From the sequence record NZ_LR134454.1: DNA of 64,000 nt, one strand, 5' to 3'. Positions 6,674 through 33,852 of this stretch are shown in pieces. Position 1 is the stretch's first letter; every line of letters begins with the position of its first letter. The DNA is from a plasmid. The position numbers were made by a program, and so were the translations under genes. The notes under the pieces are model-generated. The model had not been told where the DNA came from and did not search any database. It was given only the letters and a program-made list of their open reading frames with translations.

Positions 6674-6974
6674 GGTTCTCCTTGGCGGATGTGTGAGTAC
6701 GCAAATTGCTGCACGAACACCCATAGAGTAGCCGCGGCGTGCGCGGGCGCTCGCCGGAACCCGCGTGTGAGGAGCGACACGCTTCGGGTGCGAGCGCTGG
6801 ACCGCGCGCCGAGGGAGGAATACAGTATCTGTAACCAACCGTTCCGCATCAAGATCGCACCGGAGACCGTCGTGAAGCTGCACCGTCGCACCACCCTGCT
6901 GGGCTCGAAGGCGATCTCCCGGTTGCGGAACCGCCGACTCGCGCGCTCGCTCGCCGAGGACGGCGAGCGCCTCG

Positions 6975-7835
6975 TCACCGCGTCGGACCTGCGGGTTCTC
7001 CGGGCCGGCTAGTCGCGTCCAGGATCAGCGCCGCCGTCTGCGCGGGCTGATCGACCATGGCCTGATGCCCGCTCGGCGCGATCACGGCGTAGTGCGCGTG
7101 CAGCACGTCGGCTAGTTCCCGTTGCTGCTCCAACCAGTGATTCGCCCACGGAGTGCGCCTGCCCGCGAACGCCGCGGCCACGGTGCACGGGATGCCGGCC
7201 GGGAGGGGCGTCCGCTCCCGCAGATCCGCCAGCTCGTGCGCCAGCACCGGGTAGCGGCCGTTCTCCAGGAAGGCGGCCCGGAAGTACGCCTCGGAACTGA
7301 GGATCTCGGCGTACTCGGGCGGTGGCGCGCCCGCGCCCAGCATCCGGTGGACCAGCGGGCCGAACAGGTTCATCCGCACCGCGGCCGCCGCATCGGCCGA
7401 CCGGAGGAGAGCGGCGTCGCGTACCTCGCCCGGCACGACCCATCGCGGTGAGGTCTCGACGCTGCCGTCGAGGAGGACGGATCCCGCTGTCCGGTCGGGG
7501 AATTCGCGGAGGAAGGCCTCGACGTAGAAGCTCGCCATGGAGTGCCCGACCAGCACGGCCGAGTCGATGTCCAGCGCGTCCAGCAGCTCGCGCAGGCGGG
7601 TGACCTCGGAGTCCAGGGTGGGGACGGCACCGTCGGGCCAAGGATCGGAGAGGCCGTACCCGGGCCGGTCCAGCCGGACGATGGCGCGGCTCGCGGTCAG
7701 GAGTTCCGTGACGGCGTCCCAGTCGAACCAGTTCCCGGCCAGGCCGGAGTTGAGCACGACGGGTGGGCCGCTCGCCGGGGCGATCGGTTCGTCGACCACC
7801 ACGTGGGTGCGGGTACCCGCCAGATCGAGCAGCAC
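6975..7835 (-). CDS. Alpha/beta-fold hydrolase
   Basis: 286-aa ORF with a GHSMAS nucleophile-elbow-like motif (VLVGHSMASF). Confidence 0.7.
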   Translation of the reverse strand: MLLDLAGTRTHVVVDEPIAPASGPPVVLNSGLAGNWFDWDAVTELLTASRAIVRLDRPGYGLSDPWPDGAVPTLDSEVTRLRELLDALDIDSAVLVGHSMASFYVEAFLREFPDRTAGSVLLDGSVETSPRWVVPGEVRDAALLRSADAAAAVRMNLFGPLVHRMLGAGAPPPEYAEILSSEAYFRAAFLENGRYPVLAHELADLRERTPLPAGIPCTVAAAFAGRRTPWANHWLEQQRELADVLHAHYAVIAPSGHQAMVDQPAQTAALILDATSRPGEPAGPTR

Positions 7836-18990: not shown

Positions 18991-19710
18991 TCAGTCGGTG
19001 AACGACTTCGCTTGGAAGTTGACCGCCTCGATGAACCTGGGGTCGGGGTTGTACGAGGCGACGGCCTTCTGCCAGCCCTCGGGGGTCGACATGTCGGCGC
19101 CGGCGCCGCAGAGCAGGCGTCCGAGGGTCAAGGCGGCATCGTCGAGATTGTCGGGGTTGGGCGGCGTGCTCGTGTCGGAGCTCGCGGTGATGGCCCATTG
19201 CTCCCACACGGTGGGGGCGAACAGAAGTGGGCCCATGAGAAGGTCCGCGGAAGCGTCGCCGTCGTAGAATCCGCCGTCCGTGTCCTTCGCCGCCGGCTTC
19301 TGCGCCTCGCGGAAGGAGGGCCGGACGACGGCGTCGTCCCCGAGGCTGTGACTCCGGGACGTCCCGTGATCGGAGGTGATGCGCCCGATGGCCGCCAGTG
19401 TGGCCCAACCGAGTTGGCAGCGCGGTGCGTTCTTCCCCATCACCAGGGCCGCCCAGGAGTAGGACTCCAGCGCCGTCGTCGGAGTGAGATAGGGGCCACT
19501 GTGAATGGCAGCCCACTTGGCCATCGCTGCCGCCGCACGCGGTGCCGACGGCGCGCTGGAGGCCGAGGAAGCGGGGGCGTCGGGTGTTCGCGTCAGGCGC
19601 GCGGAACATCCGGACAGGACGACGGTCAGCGCGACCGCGATGGCGACGCCGCGGACGGCACCGGTGAAGCGTGCCGAATGATGCTGCGGCGCTCGGGCTG
19701 TCGATTTCGT
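18991..19710 (-). CDS. Lipoprotein lytic transglycosylase-like protein (MltB/Slt-like domain)
   Basis: Start re-called at GTG 19710 with a GAGAGG RBS. Lipobox LSGC. C-terminal block FAPTVWEQWA...NPDNLDDAALTLGRLLCGAGADMSTPEGWQKAVASYNP resembles actinobacterial MltB-like transglycosylases. It sits 28 bp upstream of eccC. Confidence 0.6.
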   Translation of the reverse strand, partial: TKSTARAPQHHSARFTGAVRGVAIAVALTVVLSGCSARLTRTPDAPASSASSAPSAPRAAAAMAKWAAIHSGPYLTPTTALESYSWAALVMGKNAPRCQLGWATLAAIGRITSDHGTSRSHSLGDDAVVRPSFREAQKPAAKDTDGGFYDGDASADLLMGPLLFAPTVWEQWAITASSDTSTPPNPDNLDDAALTLGRLLCGAGADMSTPEGWQKAVASYNPDPRFIEAVNFQAKSFTD

Positions 19711-20018
19711 CACGGAGTGGCCTCTCGGGGTCGTGCACGCGATACCGTTGTGGAATGCAGGTCGACGATCAGGTAGCGGGTTCGCGTCAGCGGGCGCAGC
19801 GGGTGCACTGGGAACGGTCGGAACGACAGCGGATTCTGCAGGCGCATTCGCTCCGTACGAAACTGACCACTGCCGCGGTCCTGAACGGCAAACTTCCCCC
19901 GCGGTCGACGGCTTCGGTCGTGATGCTCGTGCTGTGGTCCGTCGCGATCGCGGCGATCGCCGCGGCGGCGGTGCTGGCGGGAGTGTGGATCGCCGGCTGG
20001 ATGGGTGCGAAGTCACAA

Positions 20019-21377
20019 TCAGCGCCCCAGGTCGGTACCAAGTATGTACTGGTAAATGCCCTGAGCCCAGAACAGCATGGGAATCAGCCCCAGTAGGACG
20101 AGCGCATCGACGATGTTCCAGAGCTGAGCCAGCCGTGCGCCGGTGACGGTGGGGAGCTCGAAATAGCCGAGGAACAGGATGATCACGCCGAGGAGCAGGG
20201 CGATGACCATGGTCGCGGCCGCGGTGATGAACGGTGCCGACTCCCCGATGCGCTGGTCGATCAGGGCGACCGGCACGATGAACGCACTCGTCACTGCGAC
20301 GCCGATGATCGGCGCGACGTGCCGGACCTCCGAGAAGCTTCGACTCCGCAGGAGGAAGGCCAGTCCGATGTAGGCGCCGAACGCCGCCTGCTCCCAGACG
20401 CCCGTGATCGCGAGCACGAGAACCGCTCCCACGGCGCTCGCGCAGCACGCCCACACGATCCCGTCGAGGAGGTCGGTGGCGATGACCGCCCGCCGCACGA
20501 TCTCGGGGCGACCGGGGCGCTCACGTCCGGCCTCGTACGAGGCGGCGGGAGACTCCTCCTCGGTGCGGGCCACGACGCCGCCCAGTCCCGACCAGGCCAC
20601 CGAGAGCCGTCCGGCGCAGGCGAGGCCGATGACGAGCACCGGAGAGATCCATGCCGCGAGCGCGGTGGCGTTGACTCCCAATCGGATCGCGATCACAGCG
20701 GCGATCGCGGTTCCGCCGGCGATCGACGACGAGGCGACGATCGCCCACCGGGCCGGTGACAGGACGAAGGTCGTGATGGCGATTCCGCACAGTCCGCCGC
20801 CGACGGTGGCGAGGACGACCTGTGGCCACGGGGACGCGTGGAACACCGCCGCCGAGGCGGCGGCGAAGCAGATCGGAGTGATCCAGACGAGGTGACGGGC
20901 CGGCTCCGGAGCTGCGTAGGTGGCGAGGATGAACGCGCCCATCGCGGCGGCGCATGCGCCGGCGACGAGGCCCCCGGTGACGGCGAAGGCGACGGCCGCG
21001 ACGACGACCAGCATTCCCGCGTAGCCGACGACGACGGAATGCCGGGCGTTGCCGGTCCACATCCGGCGGTCGTCCTCGACGTAGTCGGCGACCACGTCGA
21101 TCGCGGAGAAGATCTCCGGTGCGGCGACCTCGCTCGCGGCGGGCACGATGTAGAGCAGGTCCCCGTCCACGACGCCGTAGTCGCTGAGCTTTCCGTGCGC
21201 GGCGAGGGGACCGGCCGCCACCGACGCGAATTGCCATCCCGTCTCGTCGGACGGATCGAGACCGAGAACGGCGGCGACCTGGTCGACGACCTCGGCGACG
21301 GGGCGTCCGAGCGGCGCGGTGACGTCGGCGGCGTTGTCCTCCGGGCCGACAACGGTGACCCGGACGAATTCAGCCAC
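20019..21377 (-). CDS. eccD: Type VII secretion integral membrane protein EccD
   Basis: N-terminal ubiquitin-like/YukD-like soluble domain (VRVTVVGPEDNAADVTAPLGRPVAEVVDQVAAVLGL) followed by ~11 predicted TM helices. 452 aa. Confidence 0.8.
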   Translation of the reverse strand: MAEFVRVTVVGPEDNAADVTAPLGRPVAEVVDQVAAVLGLDPSDETGWQFASVAAGPLAAHGKLSDYGVVDGDLLYIVPAASEVAAPEIFSAIDVVADYVEDDRRMWTGNARHSVVVGYAGMLVVVAAVAFAVTGGLVAGACAAAMGAFILATYAAPEPARHLVWITPICFAAASAAVFHASPWPQVVLATVGGGLCGIAITTFVLSPARWAIVASSSIAGGTAIAAVIAIRLGVNATALAAWISPVLVIGLACAGRLSVAWSGLGGVVARTEEESPAASYEAGRERPGRPEIVRRAVIATDLLDGIVWACCASAVGAVLVLAITGVWEQAAFGAYIGLAFLLRSRSFSEVRHVAPIIGVAVTSAFIVPVALIDQRIGESAPFITAAATMVIALLLGVIILFLGYFELPTVTGARLAQLWNIVDALVLLGLIPMLFWAQGIYQYILGTDLGR

Positions 21378-21776: not shown

Positions 21777-23603
21777 TCAGGACGCGGCCCGCGACGTCGC
21801 GGTGGACGACGAGGGTGCGGGCTTGCCGGTGGTGGGAGGTAGCTGGCTGGTCGGCCCGGTGGGCGCCCCTTGTGCCGGCCCGGGCGGGAGGAAGGGCGCG
21901 TTCGGGAGCGGACTCTGGCCCACGTCCGGGACCGGGATCGACGGGACCTGCGCTCCACCGGGCAGGGTGACCGGGGCCAACTGCGCCGGCGGCTTGGGAT
22001 TCTGCTTGGTGACGTTCGTGTGCATCAGGTACGTGTTGTACGAATTGAACTGAGACACGACGAAGTACAGATCGTTGCCCGAGGAACCGGGGAGGACTCG
22101 CGGTGCGTAGAGGCTGGGGTAGTCGGTGCCCGAGGCGATGATCTCGGGGTCCGACCACGGGCCGAGCGCCGACGCGGACTGACGCATCACGATGGCGTTG
22201 CGCACCATGTCCGTATTGACCATCACGAACCGCTGAACGCCGGGATGATATGCGACGTTGAAGTCGCCGAGCGCACCCCAGGCGAGGGGGGACGGGGCGG
22301 TCTTCTCCGCGGCGGAGAACTCGCCGCCGTTCCACACCTTGTACTTCGACGAGTCGAGGACGTCCTTGGTCTTGGTCTTCGACACGAACACGCCGCCGAT
22401 GCGGCCGGGCGGGCTCCCGTACAGGTAGACCTCGTCGCCGACGACGACGGCGGAGGTCATCTGGAAGGCCGTGTTCCGCTCGGAGTTGCGCCAGACGGCC
22501 TTCGGGGCCTTGAACCACGTGGAGCCACCGTCGTCCGAGTAGGCGATGCCCGAGTAGTTCGACACCCACTGCCCGGACGAAGGGCCCCAGGTCCGAATGG
22601 AGGTGTAGGTCAGGAAGGTGCGGTCGCCGATCGCGAACCCGGAGGTCGGGATGACGGTCTCTTCGGCACCCTTCGCCTTCGCGCTCTGCAGAATCTCCTT
22701 GGCGTGGCCCGGCCGGTCCGTGATGAACGAGGTGATCTTCATTCCCGCCGAGGGATTGGAGACGTCGGCCACTGCGAGCGAATTGGACCTCCAGTCGAAT
22801 CCCGTCGGTCCCGTGGTCCCCGTCCAACCGACGCCGGGGCTCTGCTGCCCGGTGCCGCCGCCGGAACCTTCCGAGGAGCTGCCCGAGCCGCCGCTGCCGG
22901 ATCCGGAACCCTGCTGGCCGCCGGCGCGAATGTTGATCAACGGGATGTCGGGCACGGGGATCTTGACCGCCGAGGGAATGATCGGCACGTTCAATCCGCT
23001 ACCGTCAACCAGCGGCGGAGTCGTGGCCTGCTCCCCGGTCGCGCGCGGGCCGCCGAACGTGTCGCCGAAGGCGACGAGGGTTCGTCCCCGCGAGTCCGCG
23101 AACGGCACGGCCCAGGCCGCGCCGGCGACTCCCCAGTTCTTGTCGGTGTGAGAATACGACTGGGCGCCAGTGATCTTCGAGACGAAGGCGTTCGTCACCG
23201 ATCGACCCTGCGGCAGAGCGGGCTGGCCGGCCCCGGGAGGCTCGGCGGCCGGTGCGGCCGGCTTCGCGGGTCCGCCCGGCCCGCCGGGACCGTTCGGTGC
23301 GGCTGTGACCACGGGGAGCCCCGGAACCCCGGGAGCGGGTGGCACGGCGTAGGGAAATGAACCCTGGGCACTGACCTGAGAGGGCTGCGCGCCCGCTTCC
23401 ACCGTCTGAGAGGGTGCTGAGGAGGTCGAGCACGCGGCGACTGTGCACACCGCCACGGAGCCGACCGCGGCGGCACGCACTCGCGAGAGGAGCGCGGACG
23501 TACCTCGAGATCGGTTGTGACGTACCGCATGTTTCGCCACGGCGTGCTCCCCGCTGGTTCTGGGTCCGCTGGAGCGCCGCTCCAGCAAACCTGAGATTTT
23601 CAT
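21777..23603 (-). CDS. Secreted/lipoprotein DUF4185-like domain protein with Gly/Ser linker and Pro-rich C-terminus (608 aa)
   Basis: Signal peptide and lipobox-like AACS. Gly/Ser linker. Core with TWGPSSGQWVSNYSGIAYSDDGGSTW and YAPRVLPGSSGNDLYFVVSQFNSYNTYLM blocks characteristic of DUF4185. Pro-rich tail. Confidence 0.55.
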   Translation of the reverse strand: MKISGLLERRSSGPRTSGEHAVAKHAVRHNRSRGTSALLSRVRAAAVGSVAVCTVAACSTSSAPSQTVEAGAQPSQVSAQGSFPYAVPPAPGVPGLPVVTAAPNGPGGPGGPAKPAAPAAEPPGAGQPALPQGRSVTNAFVSKITGAQSYSHTDKNWGVAGAAWAVPFADSRGRTLVAFGDTFGGPRATGEQATTPPLVDGSGLNVPIIPSAVKIPVPDIPLINIRAGGQQGSGSGSGGSGSSSEGSGGGTGQQSPGVGWTGTTGPTGFDWRSNSLAVADVSNPSAGMKITSFITDRPGHAKEILQSAKAKGAEETVIPTSGFAIGDRTFLTYTSIRTWGPSSGQWVSNYSGIAYSDDGGSTWFKAPKAVWRNSERNTAFQMTSAVVVGDEVYLYGSPPGRIGGVFVSKTKTKDVLDSSKYKVWNGGEFSAAEKTAPSPLAWGALGDFNVAYHPGVQRFVMVNTDMVRNAIVMRQSASALGPWSDPEIIASGTDYPSLYAPRVLPGSSGNDLYFVVSQFNSYNTYLMHTNVTKQNPKPPAQLAPVTLPGGAQVPSIPVPDVGQSPLPNAPFLPPGPAQGAPTGPTSQLPPTTGKPAPSSSTATSRAAS

Positions 23604-23772
23604 ATGGATCGCGGCGACCTTATCGCGCGGATCCGGCCCTCGCTACTTGATGTGACGAAGGGTACGTTGGTTGCGGTAACTGTTGCGAACGGTCGTAACC
23701 GCTTGTAGTGTCCTGCGCAAATTCAACCTGGGGTGTCTTGCCCCGGAAGATTCCCGGAGGGGCACGACGGCC

Positions 23773-24105
23773 ATGGGTACTCGTTTCTCAGTCGCCAATC
23801 ATGCGGTGACCACGCACGCGACCAACATCGAGCAGGTGTCTGGGGCGTTGAACGCTCAGGGCAAGCGGTTCGTCTCCGCGGTGGAGGCGTTGCCGGCGTC
23901 GTGGAAGGGGCAGTCGTTCATCGCGTGGGATCAGTTGACGACGCGGTGGGATGCTTCGTTCAAGGAGCTCAATGCGGCGTTGACGACGATCCGTGAGTCG
24001 GTGGGGCAGGCCGGGCAGCTGTACACCTCCGGTGAGCAGCAGCAGGCGGCGAACCTCGAGCAGGCGGCTCGGGGCATGGCCTGGGATCAGGCGAAGTTCC
24101 GCTGA
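23773..24105 (+). CDS. esxB: WXG100-family protein (EsxB/CFP-10-like)
   Basis: ~110 aa helical protein with a W-x-G (ASWKGQS). C-terminal EQQQAANLE resembling the CFP-10 EEQQQALSS tail, and a YxxxE (LYTSGE). Preceded by a GGAGGGG RBS. Confidence 0.65.
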   Translation: MGTRFSVANHAVTTHATNIEQVSGALNAQGKRFVSAVEALPASWKGQSFIAWDQLTTRWDASFKELNAALTTIRESVGQAGQLYTSGEQQQAANLEQAARGMAWDQAKFR

Positions 24106-24191
24106 CCCTTTCGGGCTTTCGAGCCCGACTTTTGATCTGCAGCCACGGACTTCCGTGAGCTGCGTCTGAGCCTTCCGATGAGGAGATGATC

Positions 24192-24488
24192 ATGTCTGAG
24201 ATGTATGCGTACGACGAGGGTGGCGCGGAGACCGCCGGTGATGATCTGGCGTCGATCGTCGCGGCGTTGGAAGCGAACCTGGAGCAGTTGCAGGGGTACG
24301 TGGCGTCGGTGGAGTCGCAGTGGAACGCGGATGAGCAGGTGCTCTACCGCGGCGTGCAGACCAAGTGGAACAACGCCGCGGCGTCGGTGAGCGAGATCCT
24401 CGGGCAGATGAAGACCGCGCTCGGCACGAACACCGAGCAGGTTCGTGACATGCGGTCGCAGGTGCGCTCCGCGCTGTCGCGCAACTGA
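24192..24488 (+). CDS. esxA: WXG100-family protein (EsxA-like)
   Basis: 98 aa. YRGVQTKWNNAAASVSEILGQM parallels the EsxA [22 protein letters not shown] block. RBS GAGGAG 6 nt upstream of the ATG. The W-x-G itself is degenerate (WNA). Confidence 0.6.
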   Translation: MSEMYAYDEGGAETAGDDLASIVAALEANLEQLQGYVASVESQWNADEQVLYRGVQTKWNNAAASVSEILGQMKTALGTNTEQVRDMRSQVRSALSRN

Positions 24489-24578
24489 CTGTCCTCACGA
24501 GCTCGTCATAGTCCTGAAGGCCGCGCCATGTGTGTGCGGCCGCGTCCTGTCGTTGTCTATCGAAGGATCACTGAGCTG

Positions 24579-25166
24579 ATGTCCTCCATTTTCACCCTTG
24601 CCAAGCGGCTATCGGTAGCGGCGCTGACCAGTATCGCGATCGCTGGTGCTGTCGTCGCGCCCGCGGAAGCCGTGCCGACCACGGCCGGCTGCCGTGCCGT
24701 ACCTCAACCGGCACTGACGCTGGGCGCGGAAGGCATAGTCCGAGTGGAGATTCCTGCCGCAGCTGGGTGGCACGAGGTCGCCGCCCCTCGCGGTGCGTCG
24801 CGCCTCGCGCTGGGGCGCCTCGAGGACGCGTCCGGGCAGGACGCCCTCGACGCGTGGATCGGTGTCCTCAACAGCAACACGATCACCACGTCCGCCCAAT
24901 TTGCTGATGCGGAGACTGCTCACAGGCAGGTGCTCTCCCGGCGATCAGTCGCCGGGCCCTGCGGCCTGCCCACCGAGGCGGTGACCGTGCGTCACGCAGC
25001 CACTGCGACAGAGCGTGAGTACTTCGTCAGCGGCCGCTACACGCTCGCGCAAGCGAACGGGAAGACTTTGGTCATCTACGTCGGCGCGAGCACCTACGAC
25101 CGGAACAGACTGCCGCAGCTGGAAAACGACCTTCTGCGCGGCTACGGCATCCGCCTCCCCGCGTAA
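24579..25166 (+). CDS. Small secreted protein (~195 aa), unknown function
   Basis: Start re-called at MSSIFTLAKRLSVAALTSIAIAGAVVAPAEA (Sec signal peptide). Sits between the WXG100 pair and the toxin gene. Confidence 0.5.
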   Translation: MSSIFTLAKRLSVAALTSIAIAGAVVAPAEAVPTTAGCRAVPQPALTLGAEGIVRVEIPAAAGWHEVAAPRGASRLALGRLEDASGQDALDAWIGVLNSNTITTSAQFADAETAHRQVLSRRSVAGPCGLPTEAVTVRHAATATEREYFVSGRYTLAQANGKTLVIYVGASTYDRNRLPQLENDLLRGYGIRLPA

Positions 25167-25212
25167 CGCCGACCTGCTCACTACACGTTCTCTCTAGAGA
25201 GGCCCCCTCGCG

Positions 25213-28200
25213 ATGAGTCTCGATATCAATCCCGGCGACGGCATCGTCGGGGAGCTGGAGCTACTCGGTGATCTGATCGTCGGTGGGTTCCCGGAGGCCG
25301 TGTTCACGCTGCCGGGGGTGAGCGTCGACGAGGTACTCGATCACGCCCGTCTGTATCTCGGGTTCGCGGAGGCGGCGGAGTCGGCGCATGCTCGGGTTCG
25401 TGGACTCGAGGTGCCCGAGTTCGTGGGTGTGGAGGGCGAGTTCTTCCGCGGCCGAGTCCCCGGCGAGTTGGCGATGCAGCTCGGCGCGGCGGTGGAGTCG
25501 TACTCCCGAGTCGGTTCGGGGATCAAGGAACTCGCCCGCGAACTCGACGCCTCGCAAGCCGCTTTGAAGCCTCTCGAAGCGCGGGCGCGGGCGGTGTTCG
25601 AGCACATGCAGAAGGTGTGGATCAAGGTCAACGTCCCGTTCACTGAGTACAGCGGGTTGCGCAGCGAGTGGGATGAGCTCGTCCGCGCTGCGGGTGTGGT
25701 GCACGAGCGGGTCGCGGTGGCCGGGCAGGAGGCGGCAGCGGCGATCACCGCGGGCACCGAGGCGATGGTGCCGGTCAACGACTACTTCTCCACGCTGCCT
25801 GGCGGAGCGGTGGCGGGTGGTGTTGTGGCGCAGGGTGTGCGGTCGACTGCGTCGCGTGCGGCCTCCGCTGCCGGTGGCGTGGCCGGGGCGCCGGGACGCG
25901 CCGCGAAGGCGACCGCCGACGGGCTGGGTGCCGTAGCTGGCGCGGTCACCTCGGTTCCGCAGCAGATCACCGCGCGCGGGCAGCAACTCGCGCCGCAGGT
26001 GACCCCGGACGGGATCAAGGTCGGCGACCAGCTCCTCACCGATCCGACGAGCGAGCAGGCACAGAAGCTCGTGCGGGACGGGCAGGCTACGAACATCCTC
26101 GGACTCGACCCCACTGGTGTTCCGACGGCGATGATGATGCTCGCCTCCCCGAACACCCTGCTGCGCGAGCAGCCGCGCAAGAAGGCGGCCGGGCGTAGAT
26201 GGTCGGGTGAGGAGTCGAAGGCGCAGTCGATCGCGCAGAATGCGGTCGGTCAGGTGGTCTCGGTTCCGGGACGGTTCGTCGGCGGCGCCGTCGACCGGTT
26301 CGGCAACACCATCGCCGGCAATGCCGCTCTGATCGGTGTCGGTGGTGACCCCGTCCGCGCGTGGACGGGGCTGCTCTCGAATGTCACCAGCCCCGTTGCG
26401 GGTGCTGGTCGCGCTGTAGCGTCTGCGACGCCCGAGCAGATCCTGGCCGACCCGATCGCCGCAGCCGGCTCGGCAGCCACCCACGCGCCCGCCGCGGTGC
26501 CCTTCGTCGGCTGGGTCTACGGGCTGGTGGAGTGGGCGACCAAGCCCGGCGAACTCGCCCACGAAGGCGCGAAGGAATCACTCACCTCCGCCCTCGATGC
26601 ACTCACATTGAAGAACCTCGAAGCAGGCCAGGCAGTCGCCAACACCGGCGAAGTGCAAGTCACCACCTCCGACGTGGACGTCCACGCCGACAACGGCGGA
26701 TACGTCACCTTCACCCTCCCAGACCTCGAAGGCGGAGAACCCAAAGCCTGGTACATCCTCGCCACCCCCGACAGCCCCGGAAACTTCACCACCAACGTCC
26801 CCACCGCCCCGGGTGAGGAGCTCGTCGAACGCGGCGACGGCTCCGTCGTGTTGGTCAACAGCGGAACCGGACAGATCGTCCGCACCATCAAAACGCCGTG
26901 GGCGAAAGACGCACTCGGACGCGATCAACCCACCTGGTACTCCATCGACAAGGTCGACGACCAGACGTCGACGATCACCCAACACATCGCACCGAACAAG
27001 GGAGCGCTGTATCCGCTGGTGGCGGATGCTCCTGGTGATCAGAAGACGACGACGAATCCTGACGGATCGGTCGCAACGTCAACTGAGATTGAGGGTGGCT
27101 CTGTCGATACGACGGTGAAGAACGCTGACGGGACTACTTCGTCGATGCGGAGCGTCCCCGACGGCAACGGTGGGGTGACTACATTCACGGCGAACCCTGA
27201 CGGTAGTCATTCGGTGCATTACCCCGACGGGTCGCGAGTGGAGGAGCCTGCGGCGGGGGCGAGTACACCCGCTCAGAGTTATGCTCCTGATCCGAAGTAT
27301 TCGAATCCGCAGTATCGTCAGGAGCCCGCGCAGCAGGCTCCTGCTCAGCAGGCCCCGGCGCAGCAGCCTGCGGCTCCTTCCGCACCTGCTGTTGCTCCTG
27401 CCGAGTCGTCGGTCGGTGCGGTAGACACGGCAGGACGTGACGACGGTGATTCATGGACCCAAGGCTTGCCGGGTGGCGAGTCCGCGCAGCACACCATCGT
27501 CCCCGGCACGGGCGGTCAGACTGTTGACTCTGTGGTCACCCGCCCTGATGGTTCGTCGACGAAGATCCGTTCGGTCAAAGACGGGCAAGGCGGATGGAAG
27601 ATCTGGTCCGACAACAGTGACGGCACCGCATCGTATGCAGAACGCCAGGGCTCGCTCGGCGACGTTTACACCGCCCGGTACGGCGAGTCCCCGGTGTACG
27701 GCAGCGCACCTATCGTCACCTCCAACGCGGCTCCCGACAACTCCAAAGGGCAGATCGTCGGGCAAAATCCGAACGGAACCACGTCGGTGGGCAACTTCGG
27801 GGTCCGCGACGACGGACGCGTCGGGCTGTCGGTGCGAAACCCCGACAACACTGTCTCCTCCATCGTCACTGGAACAGGTCCCGATGGCCGTCCCCACGAT
27901 GACATCACCACGTTCAACGACGGCAAGACTGAGACCAGTCACGAGGTAAACCCGTTCACAGGTGAGCGGACCGAGACCACCACCGTGCTCGACACGGGCG
28001 TGAAGGTTATCGCCGTTCTGGATCGCGATAACAACCTCATCTCCCGAGTCCAAGGCGTTGGTGGTCAGCTTGAAGGCGTGATGAACACCCCCGACGGGCA
28101 GGTGGAGATTCAGGTCCGCCCCGACGGGGTGTACGGGCGGAGCGCGAACGGGGAGTTCGTCAAGTTCCGTGAAGACGGGGAACTGCCCGATACCCGCTCC

Positions 28201-29988
28201 TTCGGGCAGAAGGCGAACGACCAGGCAGGAAAGTTCGGGTCCGCCGTCGGGGGAAGCGTGTGGGATTCCCTCAAGAGCGTCCCGCAGACCGTTGCCCACC
28301 CGGGCGAGGCAGCTTCCGGGCTCTGGGAGACAGCGAAGGGACTGGTCGGACAGGAAAAGGCCGACCGCACCGTCATCCACAACTGGACCACCTTCCTGAC
28401 GGGGACCAACGCCAATGAGTGGACCGAGGACGGGGTCGCCACCTCCCTCGGACACGCGGTTGTCGGTGTCGGCTCATGGTTCATCCCTGGCCCCGGCTGG
28501 GTCGCCAAGGTCACTCGCGCAGGGCACCTCGGCTCCACAGCAGCCCACGCCCTCGAGCACGTCGACAACGCCCGCTCCACCGCGAGCACCGCAACCCGCG
28601 CCGCCGCCATGGGAGCAGTCAGCCGCGCCCTACCAAACCTCACAGAACGCTTCCAAGGCTTCAACGCAGCCCGCGCCGCCGACATCGGCGTCGACGCTCC
28701 TGAAGCGGCACCCGCCGCAGGAAAACCCACGCCACGCGCCGAAGCTCCCGCACCCTCCGTTGCCGTCCCACGAGCGGAAGCCCCCGCCAGTCCAACGCCC
28801 GCACCTCGCGTCGAGGCACCCGCAACTACCGCCCCCCGAGCCGAGACACCTAACAACACCCCAGGGACACCGCCCCGCGCTGCGGACACACAGAACCCGT
28901 CCGTCGACACACCCCGCATCGACACCCCCGACGCACCCACCACCCCGAAGCCGGACAATCCCGCTTTCACGACCACCCCGGGAGCAGACCGCCGCGCCGC
29001 AGAGGCTGCGGCCCCCGCCGAACGCCCCGACCACCACCCGGCCTCGCCAACCGAGAAGGCCGGCGCTGACGCAGACAAGACAGTGGACACGCCGAAGGTC
29101 GGCGAAGTCGACGCCCCGAGGGCTGGCGATGTGGACACCCCCACCACCTCAGGTGCGGCGCGCGCGGATGCACCGTCCGTTGGCGACGGTGTGCCAGGCA
29201 AGGCAGCAGACCTCGACGGCGGACCGCACCCGCGCGGAGAACTCGACATCGACCTCGACAATTACTTCCACCCAGGCGAAAGTGGCGGCACCAAGTACAC
29301 CGCCGACGACGTACGCACTGCCTTCGACAACGCACCCAACAACAAGGAGGGTGTCCCTGTCGATCACCGCACCGGCGAACCACTGGTCCTCACCGACGCC
29401 GCAGGCAAACGCGGGTGGACCATGCGCCAGGACGCCGACGGAGTATGGCGCGCCGAAAACTACGCGCTGCACCCGGACGGGATGCCTAAGAAGGGCACAC
29501 CCAACAGTTACGGCTACGACGCCAACGGTGACCTCCGCAAATACGCCGAGAACAGACCGAGTCATAAACCCGAAGACATCAAAACCGTGTGGGACACTAC
29601 CCACACGGATATCAACAACCTCATCGAGTCCGGCGTCCTCCGCGACCTGCCCAAAACCGAACGACCCGACCAAACCTGGCTCCGAGCACCCGACGGAACC
29701 AAAACAAACGGCAGCGACATACGCGAAACCCTCAACACCCGCACAGGCGAGACCGAGGTATACAAGCTCGAAACCTGGAAACCCGGCGACAAACAAAACT
29801 GGGACATGGGACACATCAAGGGTGAGGAATACCGCCGAATCCACGATGACTACATGCGCGGAAAGTACAAGTCCGACGAAGACTTCGTTGAAGACTTCCG
29901 TAATTTGGACCTTTATGAGGCGGCGAATGCACCTCGCAACCGCTCCCACGTGGATGAAGACATGACTCCGCTGCCGCCGCGCCCCTGA
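25213..29988 (+). CDS. Polymorphic toxin (1591 aa): N-terminal helical domain, central degenerate repeat region, Pro/Ala-rich linker, C-terminal HNH/GH-E-like nuclease toxin domain
   Basis: Giant ORF with an AGAGAGG RBS. Central repeats of the form NPDGS..T..DG (YD/RHS-like, degenerate). Pro-rich tandem PRAEAPA-like linker at ~aa 1150-1260. C-terminus WDMGHIKGEEYRRIHDDYMRGKYKSDEDFVEDFRNLDLYEAANAPRNRSH matches the G-H-E / N-L / N-x-S-H pattern of GH-E HNH nucleases. GC drops from ~70% to ~55% across the 3' end. Confidence 0.65.
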   Translation: MSLDINPGDGIVGELELLGDLIVGGFPEAVFTLPGVSVDEVLDHARLYLGFAEAAESAHARVRGLEVPEFVGVEGEFFRGRVPGELAMQLGAAVESYSRVGSGIKELARELDASQAALKPLEARARAVFEHMQKVWIKVNVPFTEYSGLRSEWDELVRAAGVVHERVAVAGQEAAAAITAGTEAMVPVNDYFSTLPGGAVAGGVVAQGVRSTASRAASAAGGVAGAPGRAAKATADGLGAVAGAVTSVPQQITARGQQLAPQVTPDGIKVGDQLLTDPTSEQAQKLVRDGQATNILGLDPTGVPTAMMMLASPNTLLREQPRKKAAGRRWSGEESKAQSIAQNAVGQVVSVPGRFVGGAVDRFGNTIAGNAALIGVGGDPVRAWTGLLSNVTSPVAGAGRAVASATPEQILADPIAAAGSAATHAPAAVPFVGWVYGLVEWATKPGELAHEGAKESLTSALDALTLKNLEAGQAVANTGEVQVTTSDVDVHADNGGYVTFTLPDLEGGEPKAWYILATPDSPGNFTTNVPTAPGEELVERGDGSVVLVNSGTGQIVRTIKTPWAKDALGRDQPTWYSIDKVDDQTSTITQHIAPNKGALYPLVADAPGDQKTTTNPDGSVATSTEIEGGSVDTTVKNADGTTSSMRSVPDGNGGVTTFTANPDGSHSVHYPDGSRVEEPAAGASTPAQSYAPDPKYSNPQYRQEPAQQAPAQQAPAQQPAAPSAPAVAPAESSVGAVDTAGRDDGDSWTQGLPGGESAQHTIVPGTGGQTVDSVVTRPDGSSTKIRSVKDGQGGWKIWSDNSDGTASYAERQGSLGDVYTARYGESPVYGSAPIVTSNAAPDNSKGQIVGQNPNGTTSVGNFGVRDDGRVGLSVRNPDNTVSSIVTGTGPDGRPHDDITTFNDGKTETSHEVNPFTGERTETTTVLDTGVKVIAVLDRDNNLISRVQGVGGQLEGVMNTPDGQVEIQVRPDGVYGRSANGEFVKFREDGELPDTRSFGQKANDQAGKFGSAVGGSVWDSLKSVPQTVAHPGEAASGLWETAKGLVGQEKADRTVIHNWTTFLTGTNANEWTEDGVATSLGHAVVGVGSWFIPGPGWVAKVTRAGHLGSTAAHALEHVDNARSTASTATRAAAMGAVSRALPNLTERFQGFNAARAADIGVDAPEAAPAAGKPTPRAEAPAPSVAVPRAEAPASPTPAPRVEAPATTAPRAETPNNTPGTPPRAADTQNPSVDTPRIDTPDAPTTPKPDNPAFTTTPGADRRAAEAAAPAERPDHHPASPTEKAGADADKTVDTPKVGEVDAPRAGDVDTPTTSGAARADAPSVGDGVPGKAADLDGGPHPRGELDIDLDNYFHPGESGGTKYTADDVRTAFDNAPNNKEGVPVDHRTGEPLVLTDAAGKRGWTMRQDADGVWRAENYALHPDGMPKKGTPNSYGYDANGDLRKYAENRPSHKPEDIKTVWDTTHTDINNLIESGVLRDLPKTERPDQTWLRAPDGTKTNGSDIRETLNTRTGETEVYKLETWKPGDKQNWDMGHIKGEEYRRIHDDYMRGKYKSDEDFVEDFRNLDLYEAANAPRNRSHVDEDMTPLPPRP

Positions 29989-30010
29989 ACCGCCTGTTAG
30001 GATCACCCAC

Positions 30011-30553
30011 ATGGACGACCACTGGTACTCCTCCGCCTACCCCGCCGCCAGTATGGGCACTTACGACAACTTCATCGCAGTCTACGAGGGCAGTGAAGAC
30101 GAAGCGTCAATCCAGAATCACACGGAACCCAAAGATAACACCCTACTCTGGAAAGCTGCGCACAATAGGAATGTTGACGCACGGCTAGCTATCTGCAATA
30201 GGCTCATCGATGACGGTATCGATGTGGCATATGAGGACAACAAGACGAACGTCTTACACTTGTACTTCAGTAACCGCACCTTCGAGCCCGAGAAGGAGGC
30301 GCCTCTTCTGCGTAGGTTACTGGAAGGTGGGGCGGATCTGAACCTCCAGCCCAGTAAAGGCTACTCCCCCCTAATGACCTTCATGACTAACCCGCGCCTG
30401 TTACCCGATGAAGTGAAGGTTCCGTTTTTTAATGTGCTTTTGGAGTTTCCTGAGTTTGTGTATCGGGAGCCTGACGGTTCGTTGCGGTGGCCGATGATCC
30501 CGTCGCTGACAGCGTGTATTGAGGCGCATGAGGCGAAGGCGGGTGGGCGGTGA
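30011..30553 (+). CDS. Ankyrin-repeat protein; candidate immunity protein for the upstream toxin
   Basis: 180 aa, ~50% GC. Ankyrin-like repeats (LLWKAAHNRNVDARLAICNRLIDDGIDV...; LLRRLLEGGADLNLQPSKGYSPLM). Sits 22 bp after the toxin stop. Confidence 0.55.
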   Translation: MDDHWYSSAYPAASMGTYDNFIAVYEGSEDEASIQNHTEPKDNTLLWKAAHNRNVDARLAICNRLIDDGIDVAYEDNKTNVLHLYFSNRTFEPEKEAPLLRRLLEGGADLNLQPSKGYSPLMTFMTNPRLLPDEVKVPFFNVLLEFPEFVYREPDGSLRWPMIPSLTACIEAHEAKAGGR

Positions 30554-31371
30554 CGGTGGTGCCGGGTCATCTGACGCGGGTGTACGGGGCTTCGGTTGCT
30601 CGGTTTGAGCCGCTGTTCGAAGGCGCGGTGGAGGTCGAGGTCCGCGCTCACGACGGCATGCAAAGGCGGCGGACAGTAACCACCGACGGGTTGTCGGTGA
30701 TCGTCGACGGTGTACCTGTGGAGTTAGCAGTTGAGGTCTCCGCTAAGGATCAGGTCGGCACGGCTGCGGTAGCGATCAGCACCGTCGCCCGAGACATTGT
30801 TGATAATCGGCGGCGTCCACCCCTCGAAGTGGTGTCACGGCTCCCCCGCCCGCTGGTGGAGGGAACACGACTGCGGGCGATCATCGCGTCGGGATCGCGG
30901 TTCGGAGCGGACGCTGATGTGATTGTTGAGAGCGCGGGTGATCGGGTCGTCCAGGTGGTGACGTTGCGGTTGCTGACATGGGCAGAAGCGAACGTGGTCG
31001 ATGATCGTGGCTGGAACGCCTTCCTCACCACGGTCGGCAGTCCCGATGAGGTGCTCGACACACAGCGCGTCACCGACGCTGCACGCCCCACTGTCGCTGA
31101 ATTGGGAAACCTGCCGATACTGGTCTCGAAGCAGCACTACGACCACCCGCCCCGGTTCGTCGGGTTGATGGATGTCGACGGCAGACTCACCTTCACCTCT
31201 ACCACCGGACGTGAAAGCCCGGAATACATGGCAGACCCATCCAACCGCGAAATATGGGGCATCAACAGCTACCTCCAAGACTTCCCGTGGGTCGAATCCT
31301 TCATCACCACCGCCGCCCCCGGCGACGATGCCGTATTCACCGATCAGTCAGGTGACTTCGCTTGGGAGTAG
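30550..31371 (+). CDS. Hypothetical protein (273 aa), translationally coupled to the ankyrin gene
   Basis: GTGA start/stop overlap with the ankyrin ORF. No recognisable domain. Intermediate GC. Confidence 0.4.
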   Translation: MTVVPGHLTRVYGASVARFEPLFEGAVEVEVRAHDGMQRRRTVTTDGLSVIVDGVPVELAVEVSAKDQVGTAAVAISTVARDIVDNRRRPPLEVVSRLPRPLVEGTRLRAIIASGSRFGADADVIVESAGDRVVQVVTLRLLTWAEANVVDDRGWNAFLTTVGSPDEVLDTQRVTDAARPTVAELGNLPILVSKQHYDHPPRFVGLMDVDGRLTFTSTTGRESPEYMADPSNREIWGINSYLQDFPWVESFITTAAPGDDAVFTDQSGDFAWE

Positions 31372-31669
31372 AAACCCTCCCGCCGTTCAGTCGTCACCAG
31401 TAGTTGCTTCATGAGCGGCGCACCGCCACCGCGTACCCTCACCATCGGTACGGATGCATGCTGGCGACGTACAGGTCGGTGACCACATTTCTACCGCGAC
31501 GACGACGGCGACTTACCGTTCGCGGCGCAGGCTGGAGATGTGCCCTTTCAGTCAGACGCAGCAACTCCGACAAACCTGGGACGCTCCGGAGTGCCGTCGA
31601 ATGAATCTCCCCCGGGAGTGGTGGAAGGTCTGAAATCTGAATTGCCCCGGAAGCAGGAGTAGCCACCCC

Positions 31670-32407
31670 ATGAGAAAGTCCCGCCCAATCCACGAACCTC
31701 CCGAGCCGGTTCCCGTGGACCCACGGCCAAGTCGCCTCGAAACCGACCTCGCCACCCTCGAGATCGGCCACGGCTTCACCCTCGGCAACCCCGCCTACCC
31801 CCCGCACGGCAATTCCGAAGGCGACCGAGTCGTCTACCTCACCCGCCCTAGTACCGTCCCCGGATGCGACGACGTCATCGAATACACCATCCATGGCCGA
31901 GGACGTTCCGGAGTCATCGACGGCGCAGCGTACATCGCCCACCCTGCCATGCGCGAAATCGCCCAGCGCGACCCCCAACAATACGGATTCACCCCCGGAA
32001 CCTGGCTCAGCAACTCATTTCACCGAAATATGCTGCACATCGAATGGGCAGGCGCACCAGCATCTGTAAAGTTCCGTGCCAACGCCACCGAGGAGAGCGT
32101 CCACTGGGGTTACAGTGTTGCGCTCGACTACGCTACTTCTTACTACCCCCGACGCTCGGACGAAGAATTCTTCCCTCTTTATCGCACTTTCGAATCGATC
32201 GAGCGTGGGGCGTATGCCATCCTAGAGCGAGGAAAGAGGATTGCCAAACCGCGGTTTTCTCGCGAGCAGGCATTTGTTATCTACGCGATGTTTGTTGGTG
32301 AGCATGAGAGCGCACACCGCATGTACACCACACTGCAGCGATTCGAAGCACCCGAAGCAACCAGCTTCTCGAACGCCATCGAAGTGATCTTTGGGCGATT
32401 GCCGTAA
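31670..32407 (+). CDS. Hypothetical protein (245 aa) in the low-GC island
   Basis: ORF with GGAGTAG upstream. 3' half falls to <50% GC. No family recognised; may be an orphan toxin/immunity module. Confidence 0.35.
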   Translation: MRKSRPIHEPPEPVPVDPRPSRLETDLATLEIGHGFTLGNPAYPPHGNSEGDRVVYLTRPSTVPGCDDVIEYTIHGRGRSGVIDGAAYIAHPAMREIAQRDPQQYGFTPGTWLSNSFHRNMLHIEWAGAPASVKFRANATEESVHWGYSVALDYATSYYPRRSDEEFFPLYRTFESIERGAYAILERGKRIAKPRFSREQAFVIYAMFVGEHESAHRMYTTLQRFEAPEATSFSNAIEVIFGRLP

Positions 32408-32528
32408 GCAGTTCGGCTTCAAGGGCTCGACGCAAGAGATGTGTTGCTAGCTCTTCGGGATGGATGCTGACTGCGGCTCAAAAGATAAAACGATACAACG
32501 ACAAACTCAATGGGGAGTGGAAACAATA

Positions 32529-33011
32529 ATGAGAACGGTGCTTCGATATTCGCTGCGGATCGCGATTGCCGCGTGTGTGGTCGCACCCGTGGCAGGGTGC
32601 GGTCTCGAGCATGCTGGAAATGCACCTACGACGTACGTTCGTCCCGGGCACACGCTGCCGGCATCGACCACGTCAGTGAGTTCGCCGACTGCCGTAAGCT
32701 CGTCCGTTCCGGAACCGACGACCGTCCCTACGATCGCAGATACCTGCTCCGGGAGCTACTGGTACGGCGACGCGGTCAACACGCACGTATGGATCGGACG
32801 GCGCGTCGCGCAGGACGCCAGGATTGTCGTGACGACCACCGACGGGAAGGTCAGTTCATGGACGAACACCGTCACGTCCGACGACGGGTACGCCCGTAAG
32901 GGCTGGTACAGCGAGTCCACGACGCCGTTGCTCGGCACTCCGGTGGCGACGGTCAAACGTGTCGACCTCCAGATCGACGGTCGAACCTGCCCGATCCGAA
33001 AGACGGGATAG
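32529..33011 (+). CDS. Small lipoprotein (160 aa)
   Basis: MRTVLRYSLRIAIAACVVAPVAGCG: signal peptide with lipobox. AT-rich upstream region and GGGGAG RBS. Confidence 0.5.
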   Translation: MRTVLRYSLRIAIAACVVAPVAGCGLEHAGNAPTTYVRPGHTLPASTTSVSSPTAVSSSVPEPTTVPTIADTCSGSYWYGDAVNTHVWIGRRVAQDARIVVTTTDGKVSSWTNTVTSDDGYARKGWYSESTTPLLGTPVATVKRVDLQIDGRTCPIRKTG

Positions 33012-33060: not shown

Positions 33061-33766
33061 CTAGGAGCTGACGCCGAGGCGGTTGAGGAGGTCGGCGTCG
33101 ATGCCGTCGAGCTCGCGGGCGATGGCCTGGTGCGCCGGGCGGCGGCGCGCGGGCGGCATCGACTCGGACGCGGTGATGGCGGTGCCCAGGTCGTCGAGGC
33201 GCTGCGCCACGGCGGCGGTGAAGGACTTGGTCTCCGCATCGGGGTGCGTGGCCGCCAGCTGGTCCAGCGAGCGACGGGCCGCCGCGACGCGGGCCGAGAG
33301 GCCGCCGCCGTAGCCGGCGAACGCCGCGACCTCGTCGACGGGCACGCCGAGGCGCGAGGCCTTGGCCGCATCGAGCTGGTTCCGGCCGGCCTGCGCCGCC
33401 CGGTAGGCGATCGGCACCACGACAGGCGCCAGCAGGCGCGCGGTCGAGATGTAGCGCTTGAGCCGCGCCTCGGAGAGGAGCTTGCCGTCGACGGCCGCGC
33501 GGGCCTGGGTCTCGGCGATCTTCAGGTTCGCCGCATCGGCCTTGCCCTGCGCCTTCGCCACGATCTTCGAGCGCTGCAGGTCGGCCTTCAGCGCCTTGCG
33601 CTCGCTCTTCGACGCGTTCTTCACGACGCGCTTGGCGTCACGGTCCGCGTTCTTGGCGGCGAGCTTCGCCTCGAGGCGCCCCTTGGACTTGAGCGCCTTG
33701 GCCTGCGCGCGGCGCTCCGCGCGGGAGGACTTCGTCTTCTTGCCGAACAAACCCATCAGTGCACGT
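33061..33766 (-). CDS. Lys/Ala/Arg-rich conserved hypothetical protein (235 aa)
   Basis: Real start MGLFGKKTKSSRAERRAQAKALKSKG... The upstream ~820 codons of the 1058-aa track ORF are antisense to the RecB-like gene and rejected. Confidence 0.5.
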
Positions 33767-33852
33767 CCTTGTAGGTCAGTACTGCCGTCCGGTACAGCAT
33801 TGCACAGCGCGGCTCCGCGGGTTGTCGGTGCCGCCCGCCATACTGCTAAGCA

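Follow-up and report, generated by a model that had tools for sequence, protein, structure and literature searches.

A modular toxin gene beside type VII secretion genes

The open reading frame (ORF) at positions 25213-29988 of a 64,000-nucleotide stretch of sequence record NZ_LR134454.1 (the whole stretch is hereafter the window; G+C content, 70%) opens with ATG, comprises 1,591 codons and belongs to a run of same-strand genes in a gene map based on the G+C content of third codon positions (GC3). A protein identical to its product is held at NCBI as WP_068740522.1, ‘GH-E family nuclease [Tsukamurella tyrosinosolvens]’, and UniProt likewise names it a GH-E nuclease. Inspection of the translation identifies neither a Sec or Tat signal nor a transmembrane segment. 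Near the gene lie those for EccC and EccD, two components of a type VII secretion system (T7SS), and for two small WXG100 proteins resembling EsxB and EsxA, and T7SS-dependent secretion is predicted from this genomic linkage. With a probability of about 0.8, we interpret the gene as encoding a T7SS-exported, polymorphic antibacterial toxin of T. tyrosinosolvens, equipped with a GH-E module, linked to esxBA and ecc genes and accompanied by co-varying genes for an ankyrin and a SUFU-like protein, with secretion, nuclease activity and immunity all being predicted functions.

A sequence-only reading of the window had already described a modular, T7SS-associated toxin with a GH-E C-terminus of the HNH type, a description now backed by the Pfam family PF14410, by EccC and EccD and by the comparison of related loci. 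The C-terminal GH-E annotation is public, and the main correction made here concerns the N-terminus, which, judging by its relatives, belongs to the PF21725 family.

A GH-E nuclease module and its candidate immunity genes

The C-terminal segment WDMGHIKGEEY...RNRSH (amino acids (aa) 1526-1579) matches Pfam GH-E (PF14410) with an E-value of 1.7e-10 and 41.8 bits against a cut-off of 25, over model positions 13-65 of 68, and with 1.9e-11 and 44.9 bits when scanned as a fragment, in agreement with the proposal that the last ~60 aa form a GH-E HNH domain. This core is embedded in a toxin module of ~250 aa (1342-1591) that is 51-53% identical over ~240 aa to the C-terminus of its homologue P0003 and of loci L001 and L004; the ~185-aa extension preceding the 68-position Pfam core is found in P0003 as well. 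G1533-H1534, E1539, N1576, S1578-H1579 and E1582 are invariant between this module and that of P0003. The GH, E, N and E residues of the published motif are thereby represented by G1533-H1534, E1539, N1576 and E1582, where the placement of the last N and E on the motif is our own. Structure prediction contributed little to the question of a ββα-Me fold: the AlphaFold2 (AF2) model of aa 1340-1591, built from a two-row alignment, is of low confidence (mean predicted local distance difference test (pLDDT) 53; 24-67 in the core), Foldseek found no match to it at E≤0.001 and returned noise, and sequence searches of the PDB with the whole protein and with the C-terminus gave nothing meaningful. On its family match and conserved residues, the C-terminus is a GH-E family nuclease domain of the HNH/EndoVII type, with predicted DNase activity.

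Two genes immediately downstream encode the candidate immunity proteins. The first product, which has no signal peptide, is an ankyrin-repeat protein by its matches to PDB chains (phmmer best E 2.3e-9; 123 chains at E≤1) and, below the Pfam cut-off of 27.3, to Ank_2 (E 5.5e-4, 20.9 bits); a 50% identical orthologue follows the other GH-E toxin (P0003). The second, SUFU-like, product has a 34% identical orthologue at the same position in L001 and L004 only. Among 11 Tsukamurella loci searched with the window proteins by tblastn, both genes were found only in those with a GH-E C-terminus (L001 and L004), and their identities across loci (50% and 34%, respectively) compare with 51% for the toxin module. 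The published entry for Tox-GH-E gives a ‘GH, E, N, E’ motif, export routes that include T7SS (WXG, LXG and LDXD) and the immunity families Imm-SuFu and Imm-ank (Zhang et al. 2012, PMC3482391), and the present locus fits this description point by point.

Beyond the SUFU-like gene lie two further genes, for a 245-aa protein and a 183-aa lipoprotein, which are absent from the other GH-E loci (L001 and L004). In L007, a 36% identical relative of the 245-aa protein follows an ADP-ribosyltransferase toxin at the corresponding position. The two may be orphan immunity or accessory genes.

Conserved N-terminus and exchangeable C-termini across Tsukamurella

All 16 homologues of the toxin come from Tsukamurella and share aa 1-606, or parts of this stretch, at 77-96% identity before diverging into C-termini that match PF13930, PF14410 or PF03496/PF01129, or no family at all. 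The T. ocularis homologue (P0001, locus L010) is 91% identical over aa 1-1325 and then continues into Endonuclea_NS_2; P0006 ends in ADP-ribosyltransferase domains, and P0003 in another, divergent GH-E domain. The protein is thus a classic polymorphic toxin, with a conserved N-terminus and alternative C-terminal toxin domains. Homology breaks at ~aa 606, at ~aa 710 and within the Pro/Ala-rich linker at ~aa 1260-1325. The exchange of C-terminal modules that had been proposed from codon usage is thereby directly visible, both in the switch of P0001/L010 to Endonuclea_NS_2 and in the homologues that diverge at ~aa 606 or 710.

The variable modules are set in a fixed frame in 6 of the 11 loci, and the order esxB-esxA-(lpqN-like)-toxin beside eccC and eccD is kept in six T7SS-locus copies. 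Identity to the window proteins is 84-100% for EccC, the 240-aa lipoprotein, EccD, the 98-aa protein and the GH183 protein, 97-100% for EsxB and EsxA, 41-84% for the LpqN-like protein, 90-98% for toxin aa 1-215, 85-96% for the trunk (aa 216-606) and 98-99.6% for the DUF6474 protein on the right flank; the middle and C-terminus of the toxin and the genes downstream are variable. Genomes carry multiple paralogues, including satellite copies located away from eccC (L002, L009 and L006), in which trunk identity is 66-71%. The satellite copy in L009 is preceded by an esxB-esxA pair 99-100% identical to that of the window, L002 has the same pair in rearranged form, and L006, at a contig end, retains only the 3' end of esxA. 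From this arrangement, the esxBA-toxin unit appears to move as a block.

The rearrangement in L002 (positions 6700-7700; Tsukamurella sp. DT100, GCA_049844855.1) splits esxA: codons 1-39 and the whole of esxB are on the minus strand, and codons 41-100 lie directly upstream of the toxin gene on the plus strand. The arrangement resembles an inversion that has its breakpoint within esxA. The same region contains an HTH_17 gene and many small genes without a family and may be a mobile element. No relative of the toxin was found in a phage collection, and a literature search returned nothing on Tsukamurella T7SS toxins.

Base composition is a weaker guide to module exchange than comparison. GC3 is 0.82 for aa 1-606, 0.59 for aa 607-750, 0.78 for aa 751-1170, 0.71 for aa 1171-1341 and 0.73 for aa 1342-1591, so that the lowest value in the toxin gene falls right after the first recombination junction. 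The shift to A/T-ending codons reported for the last ~800 nt exists (0.73 against 0.82 for aa 1-606) but is modest, not unique and not the lowest along the gene, and a GC3 profile that is indeed not uniform makes a weak argument for swapping. Total G+C content falls to 0.55-0.57 at 29500-30500, mainly at codon positions 1 and 2 (0.62 and 0.42), and this fall therefore reflects amino-acid composition. At a larger scale, GC3 is 0.92-0.98 in backbone genes, 0.85-0.88 in T7SS genes and 0.67-0.89 in the stretch from esxB to the 183-aa lipoprotein gene (23683-33011). We dropped GC3 as the main evidence for module swapping, the comparative evidence being far stronger.

The same comparisons bear on the identity of the target. 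Tsukamurella are opportunistic pathogens, and the protein could be imagined as a host-directed virulence factor in the manner of CpnT/TNT of M. tuberculosis. CpnT, which depends on ESX-4, is host-directed (PMC13444075), but here immunity-type genes with cytoplasmic products adjoin the toxin gene and co-vary with its module, C-termini are polymorphic, several paralogues coexist per genome, and GH-E is catalogued as a polymorphic-toxin nuclease accompanied by Imm-ank and Imm-SuFu. A host target is thus very improbable, and a bacterial competitor is the preferred one.

The N-terminal domain is a divergent PF21725 relative

No Pfam or NCBIfam model matches aa 1-210 directly, even at E≤5; this includes the LXG profile (PF04740), although an F-V-G motif sits in the equivalent loop. 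A word-index homologue search found Tsukamurella proteins only, and such searches returned just two proteins with the N-terminus alone and seven with an alignment of the N-terminal family, a yield too small for a deep alignment, which constrained both AF2 models. These results would be expected of a new T7SS-targeting family without relatives, as the sequence-only reading had suggested for the first ~200 aa. By contrast, an exhaustive phmmer run against 1.8 billion representative proteins matched aa 25-135 or 25-185 to 38 non-Tsukamurella proteins, 120-2238 aa long, in each case at their extreme N-terminus (E 8e-7 to 1e-3). PF21725 (‘Putative T7SS secretion signal domain’) matches 27 of them. 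Ten relatives were scanned individually, and four exceeded the PF21725 cut-off of 27: P0021 (45 bits; phmmer E to the toxin 1.0e-6), P0022 (36 bits; 1.5e-6), P0025 (45.4 bits; 8.8e-6) and P0030 (28.3 bits; 2.3e-5). The matched stretch corresponds to residues ~4-113 of the relatives and 24-183 of the toxin. A profile of the relatives' N-termini gave the toxin 96.6 bits over aa 24-183, a score that is partly circular, the sequences having been chosen by similarity to the query. The comparison of two groups by hhalign is a cleaner test of homology: four Tsukamurella N-termini aligned with seven PF21725-positive proteins at a probability of 98.3% (E 2.6e-14) across 157 columns, aa 25-182 of the toxin.

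The relatives continue into toxin domains, among them Gln_amidase (a glutamine deamidase), RHS, Ntox15, deaminase, Endonuclea_NS_2 and RNase A_bac, and NCBI names such N-terminal relatives ‘putative T7SS-secreted protein’. The nearest ones outside the genus are long toxins of Nocardia huaxiensis that are annotated by their C-terminal domains only and are also missed by the Pfam model. Across an alignment of 21 sequences, F31, F51, G72, E74, L90, L111 and A160 are invariant, and aa 70-75 conform to the motif F/W-(V/I)-G-x-E-(G/A), with either F or W at position 70. In the AF2 model of aa 1-620 (20-row alignment; mean pLDDT 40, with only aa 30-190 reaching 55-74), helices span residues 38-65, 73-137 and 143-193 (pLDDT 55-74 over aa 38-193) and the motif lies in the loop between helices 1 and 2. 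A Foldseek search of this model against the PDB gave no match at E≤0.001; geometrically, the N-terminal helices come closest to PPE15 and PPE4 from PE-PPE-EspG complexes (probability 0.99, template-modelling score 0.65-0.72, root-mean-square deviation 3.3-4.5 Å, E 0.2-0.5, not significant), matches that are suggestive only.

With an F/W-x-G-x-E-G motif and a helix pattern common to both groups, in addition to the phmmer relatives, the profile score and the hhalign probability, the N-terminal domain is, by sequence homology, a divergent relative of the catalogued PF21725 (T7SS_signal) family, and a new family is extremely improbable. What stands of the original proposal is the helical character of the N-terminus, within the model confidence given above, and the lack of a direct Pfam or NCBIfam match; the claim of novelty does not survive the profile-profile comparison. 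Its wording ‘functionally equivalent to LXG’ is a fair description.

The phmmer run also brought up P0019, a protein of 2890 aa in which 13 separate stretches match toxin aa 10-51 (phmmer E 7.9e-7), which suggests a repeat protein built of a unit like the very N-terminal segment of the toxin.

The long middle of the protein

Profile searches matched nothing within aa 216-1340: the trunk, the region with PDG motifs and the pre-toxin region have no Pfam match at E≤5 and resemble none of the other PF21725-type proteins that were collected. Over the trunk, where the AF2 model is unreliable, pLDDT stays mostly under 50. Outside the genus, only one relative was found, a hypothetical protein of 738 aa encoded on Rhodococcus megaplasmids that is 37% identical to the beta-rich stretch at aa 507-605. 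On the plasmid of Rhodococcus sp. BH4 (NZ_CP014942.1; L012 4441-8895), the protein has the toxin's beta domain, with the motif PWA-DALGR-PTWY...LYP-AD, and its gene comes after a gene for an MspA-family porin and two small ones; the four genes scanned there (the 738-aa gene itself, both small ones and the 174-aa gene downstream) have no Pfam match.

Between aa 607 and 1015 there are 8 PDG and 11 loose [PDNS][DN]G[STNRQKE] motifs, whereas 5,000 shuffles gave means of 0.35 (maximum 3) and 0.93 (maximum 6), respectively, so that the enrichment is real. The motifs are irregularly spaced, at 9-107 aa, and the region is variable: it is 99% identical to that of T. ocularis L010 only and ~30% identical to that of some paralogues, and P0003, P0008 and P0010 have one PDG each. 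The ‘about 15 NPDG(S/T) repeats’ reported earlier thus reduce to a genuine enrichment with a lower count and no regular period. Two other repeats were seen correctly: Tandem Repeats Finder (TRF) detects 3.1 copies of a 15-nt unit at 27328-27374 that encodes (A)QQAP three times, which is the Q/A/P tandem repeat, and the PRAEAPA linker corresponds to PR(A/V)E(A/T)P at aa 1174, 1186, 1198 and 1208 (aa 1174-1213), followed by PRIDTP at aa 1234.

The motif enrichment had been read as YD/RHS-like, and on that view the middle of the protein would form a degenerate RHS/YD shell enclosing the C-terminal toxin, in the way of Rhs and Tc toxins; architectures combining a PF21725-like N-terminus with RHS do exist, since the distant N-terminal relative P0029 has true RHS repeats. 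Yet RHS_repeat (PF05593), RHS and DUF6531 have no match at E≤5 on the isolated segment (aa 607-1010), the PDG(S/T) motif does not have the Tyr of YD and no Tyr-Asp signature is present, only 8-11 irregularly spaced motifs over ~400 aa look unlike a regular repeat shell, and the region is variable and dispensable among paralogues. Such a shell is hardly credible here, and we retain the description of a variable, Ser/Thr/Gly-rich region with PDG(S/T) motifs.

The secretion neighbourhood

The two WXG100 genes named in the sequence-only reading are upheld and lie upstream of the toxin gene, with both products scoring above the Pfam cut-off of 27.3 (Table 1). The EsxB-like protein combines W-K-G with a C-terminal Y-T-S-G-E sequence of the YxxxE type and is 97-100% identical upstream of the toxin in the T7SS-locus loci with a complete gene and 99-100% identical in L002 and L009; the EsxA-like protein has W-N-A in place of WxG and is 99-100% identical in other loci.

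Table 1 Features of the toxin locus (window coordinates)
Feature	Position	Strand	Basis
EccC, T7SS motor ATPase, 1387 aa, three FtsK/SpoIIIE domains	14799-18962	-	TIGR03924 EccCa E 7e-205; TIGR03925 EccCb E 5.5e-185; Pfam FtsK_SpoIIIE E 3e-65
Predicted lipoprotein, 240 aa, lipobox LSGC	18991-19713	-	Sequence, hydropathy; no Pfam/NCBIfam match; 84-99% identical in 5 other Tsukamurella loci
EccD, T7SS membrane component, YukD ubiquitin-like and EccD transmembrane domains	20019-21377	-	Pfam EccD E 6e-21; YukD E 2.7e-12; TIGR03920 E 3e-23, 82.3 bits (cut-off 94.95)
Ala-rich small protein (p98), 98 aa	21432-21728	-	No family match; 88-100% identical in 5 loci
DUF4185 (= GH183 endo-D-arabinanase family) protein with lipoprotein signal	21777-23603	-	Pfam DUF4185 E 9e-78; lipobox VAAC
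EsxB-like WXG100 protein, 110 aa from Met31 of ORF 23683-24105	23773-24105	+	Pfam WXG100 E 1.2e-13, 51.5 bits; TIGR03930 E 1.9e-14
EsxA-like WXG100/ESAT-6 family protein, 100 aa	24186-24488	+	Pfam WXG100 E 4e-7, 30.6 bits (cut-off 27.3); NCBIfam ESAT6_3 E 1.4e-10, below cut-off
LpqN-like secreted protein/lipoprotein, 195 aa from Met18 (212-aa ORF)	24528-25166	+	Signal peptide; UniProt ‘Lipoprotein LpqN’
Polymorphic toxin gene	25213-29988	+	1591 aa, identical to WP_068740522.1
N-terminal helical domain, putative T7SS targeting, divergent PF21725 T7SS_signal relative, aa 24-193	25282-25791	+	phmmer, hhalign, AF2 helices
F-V-G-V-E-G loop motif, aa 70-75, WxG/LxG equivalent	25420-25437	+	21-sequence alignment, AF2 model
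Conserved family trunk, aa 261-606, last 100 aa a beta-rich domain	25993-27030	+	Cross-locus identity; no Pfam match
Variable Ser/Thr/Gly-rich region with PDG(S/T) motifs, aa 607-1010, including AQQAP tandem repeat	27031-28242	+	Motif enrichment, TRF
Pre-toxin region, aa 1011-1170	28243-28722	+	No Pfam match at E≤5
Pro/Ala-rich linker with PRAEAP repeats, aa 1171-1341, holding the C-terminal cassette recombination junction	28723-29235	+	Repeat positions; end of P0001/L010 homology
Toxin module, aa 1342-1591	29236-29985	+	Pfam GH-E; identity to P0003/L001/L004 C-terminus
GH-E HNH/EndoVII core, aa 1526-1579	29788-29949	+	Pfam GH-E
Ankyrin-repeat protein, 180 aa, predicted cognate immunity protein (Imm-ank type)	30011-30553	+	PDB ankyrin matches, Pfam Ank_2
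SUFU-like protein, 273 aa, second candidate immunity protein (Imm-SuFu type)	30550-31371	+	Pfam SUFU
Two genes of a variable low-GC3 cassette: 245-aa protein (31670-32407) and 183-aa lipoprotein, lipobox VAGC (32460-33011)	31670-33011	+	GC3 0.67 and 0.70; no family matches
DUF6474 gene, conserved right flank of the variable region	33061-33774	-	Pfam DUF6474 E 1.3e-66; 98-99.6% identical in 4 other loci

Several observations weigh against the interpretation of the gene as encoding a T7SS-exported toxin with dedicated immunity. Neither EccB nor MycP, nor EccE, was found among the ORFs scanned with Pfam and NCBIfam around eccC and eccD (window 9000-48600), so that the T7SS gene set near the toxin, on these matches, looks incomplete or split, being limited to EccC, EccD, the 240-aa lipoprotein and the 98-aa protein. 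The PF21725 hidden Markov model itself has no direct match to aa 1-210 at E≤5, and the link to the family is transitive or profile-profile; moreover, the family is only a ‘putative’ signal domain, on which a literature search found no paper. Both AF2 models are of low confidence overall (mean pLDDT 40 and 53), so that they establish neither the helical bundle nor the ββα-Me fold. Finally, the SUFU-like protein matches SUFU (PF05076) below the cut-off of 25 (E 0.0024, 18.2 bits), albeit over model positions 41-171 of 172.

The first two of these points, together with satellite copies that lie far from eccC (L002), would fit export or display by another route, next to an esx/ecc neighbourhood that is coincidental or the remnant of a decayed T7SS without toxin delivery. 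The components not seen among the scanned ORFs may instead be encoded elsewhere in the 4.9-Mb genome, however, and the toxin shows neither a Sec nor a Tat signal. The esxB-esxA pair has been duplicated together with the toxin at 99-100% identity (L002 and L009), and the T7SS-locus layout is kept in at least five species, with flanks at 84-100% protein identity, which argues for purifying selection. Another route is therefore improbable, and we continue with export through the T7SS.

Two lipoprotein-type genes complete the neighbourhood. The LpqN-like gene, between esxA and the toxin gene, is hypervariable, with 41-84% identity in six loci against 99-100% for EsxA and 90-98% for toxin aa 1-215, and its alleles do not track the toxin C-terminus: in L010, with its 99% identical toxin middle, identity is 52%, and in L007, with an ADP-ribosyltransferase toxin, it reaches 84%. 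The DUF4185 protein encoded between eccD and esxB is kept in five other loci and has a Sec/lipobox signal and no helical T7SS domain. DUF4185 and GH183 co-occur in PMC10115798, and GH183 is the enzyme family of EatA, the first proven T7SSa antibacterial toxin.

A model for export, delivery and diversification

Drawing on what is known of WXG100, LXG and PE-PPE substrates and on Benedict et al. 2026, we envision the following sequence of events. The N-terminal helices, with their F-V-G loop in place of WxG or LxG, would bundle with a small helical partner, most likely the EsxB-like protein (YxxxE) and/or EsxA, and the resulting composite F-x-G and YxxxE signal would be presented to EccC, so that the toxin would be exported with no need of a Sec signal. 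The long middle stretch may aid exit from the producer and entry into a neighbouring mycolate cell, where the C-terminal nuclease would degrade target DNA, with H1534 as the likely general base. In the producer cytoplasm, protection would come from the ankyrin protein, and possibly also from the SUFU-like protein, binding the nuclease. Recombination at ~aa 606, at ~aa 710 and within the Pro/Ala-rich linker would swap toxin and immunity cassettes between strains.

The role of the central region in envelope crossing is one that we only infer. How T7SSa toxins with cytoplasmic targets cross the envelopes of predator and prey is an open question (Benedict et al. 2026, PMC13444075). Speculatively, the ~1000 residues that separate the targeting domain from the nuclease could be a previously undescribed delivery module that carries a cytoplasm-acting toxin across the target mycomembrane and cell wall, an idea we consider rather unlikely. 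Such a module would comprise the trunk (aa 261-606), the PDG-motif region and the pre-toxin region, for which sequence searches detected no relatives outside Tsukamurella except for the ~100-aa beta domain, and it might work with the two lipoproteins of the locus, the hypervariable LpqN-like protein and the GH183 arabinanase.

Relation to described toxin systems

The locus joins three elements that have each been described: Tox-GH-E with Imm-ank and Imm-SuFu, a PF21725 N-terminal domain and the layout of T7SSa toxin loci. As in Tox-GH-E (PF14410; PMC3482391), a GH-E HNH/EndoVII core scores above the cut-off, T7SS is among the listed export routes, candidate genes of the Imm-ank and Imm-SuFu types lie downstream, and a conserved N-terminus precedes a variable C-terminus; unlike in the published family, the core here belongs to a ~250-aa module with a ~185-aa N-terminal extension, and RHS, FilH and HINT are absent. 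With PF21725 proteins the toxin shares the location of the domain at the extreme N-terminus, the helix pattern, the F/W-x-G-x-E-G loop and the diversity of toxin domains that follow; it differs from them in being too divergent for the family model, in a 24-aa N-terminal extension and in lacking the insert between helices 2 and 3 that most members carry.

A precedent is offered by the Eat loci (EatA-TapA1/A2-EatI) of Mycobacterium abscessus. ESX-4-dependent delivery has been shown there for a toxin with a helical N-terminus, small partners encoded upstream and immunity encoded downstream (Benedict et al. 2026, PMC13444075), and HNH-type toxins were reported in such loci across Mycobacteriales (PMC13444075). 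The likeness is one of locus layout and extends to the T7SSa of Mycobacteriales, an elongated helical N-terminus, small helical genes upstream, immunity downstream and the reported HNH/ENDO-type payloads. By contrast, the payload is here a predicted cytoplasm-acting nuclease rather than a GH183 arabinanase, the predicted immunity proteins are cytoplasmic rather than lipoproteins, the partners are of the canonical WXG100 EsxB/EsxA type at a core T7SS locus rather than dedicated Tap proteins, and the toxin has 1591 aa against a typical 400-1000.

LXG toxins with Lap partners in the T7SSb of Bacillota (Whitney 2017, Klein 2024) likewise have a helical N-terminus with an x-G loop, small helical partners, a polymorphic C-terminus and adjacent immunity genes, but the present toxin has no PF04740 match, its EccC and EccD are of the T7SSa type, and no Lap genes of the DUF3130 or DUF3958 type were recognised. 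A resemblance to PE/PPE and CpnT-type substrates is confined to the PPE15 and PPE4 Foldseek matches, whose E-values are not significant, and to the WxG equivalent in the loop between helices 1 and 2; neither PPE nor PE proteins match it in sequence, no gene for EspG was seen, and the model is of only moderate confidence.

As an annotation result, the finding is modest. Experimental evidence of antibacterial toxins exported by T7SSa dates from 2026 only and is confined to a cell-wall enzyme (PMC13444075). The present locus provides a clean natural example of a predicted cytoplasm-acting nuclease toxin at a core T7SS locus, in which esxB-esxA has been duplicated with every complete satellite copy seen and in which no fewer than three recombination junctions can be seen, with two candidate immunity genes downstream. 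It would therefore be a convenient system for asking whether EsxA and EsxB serve as targeting partners and how toxins of this kind cross the mycolate envelope.

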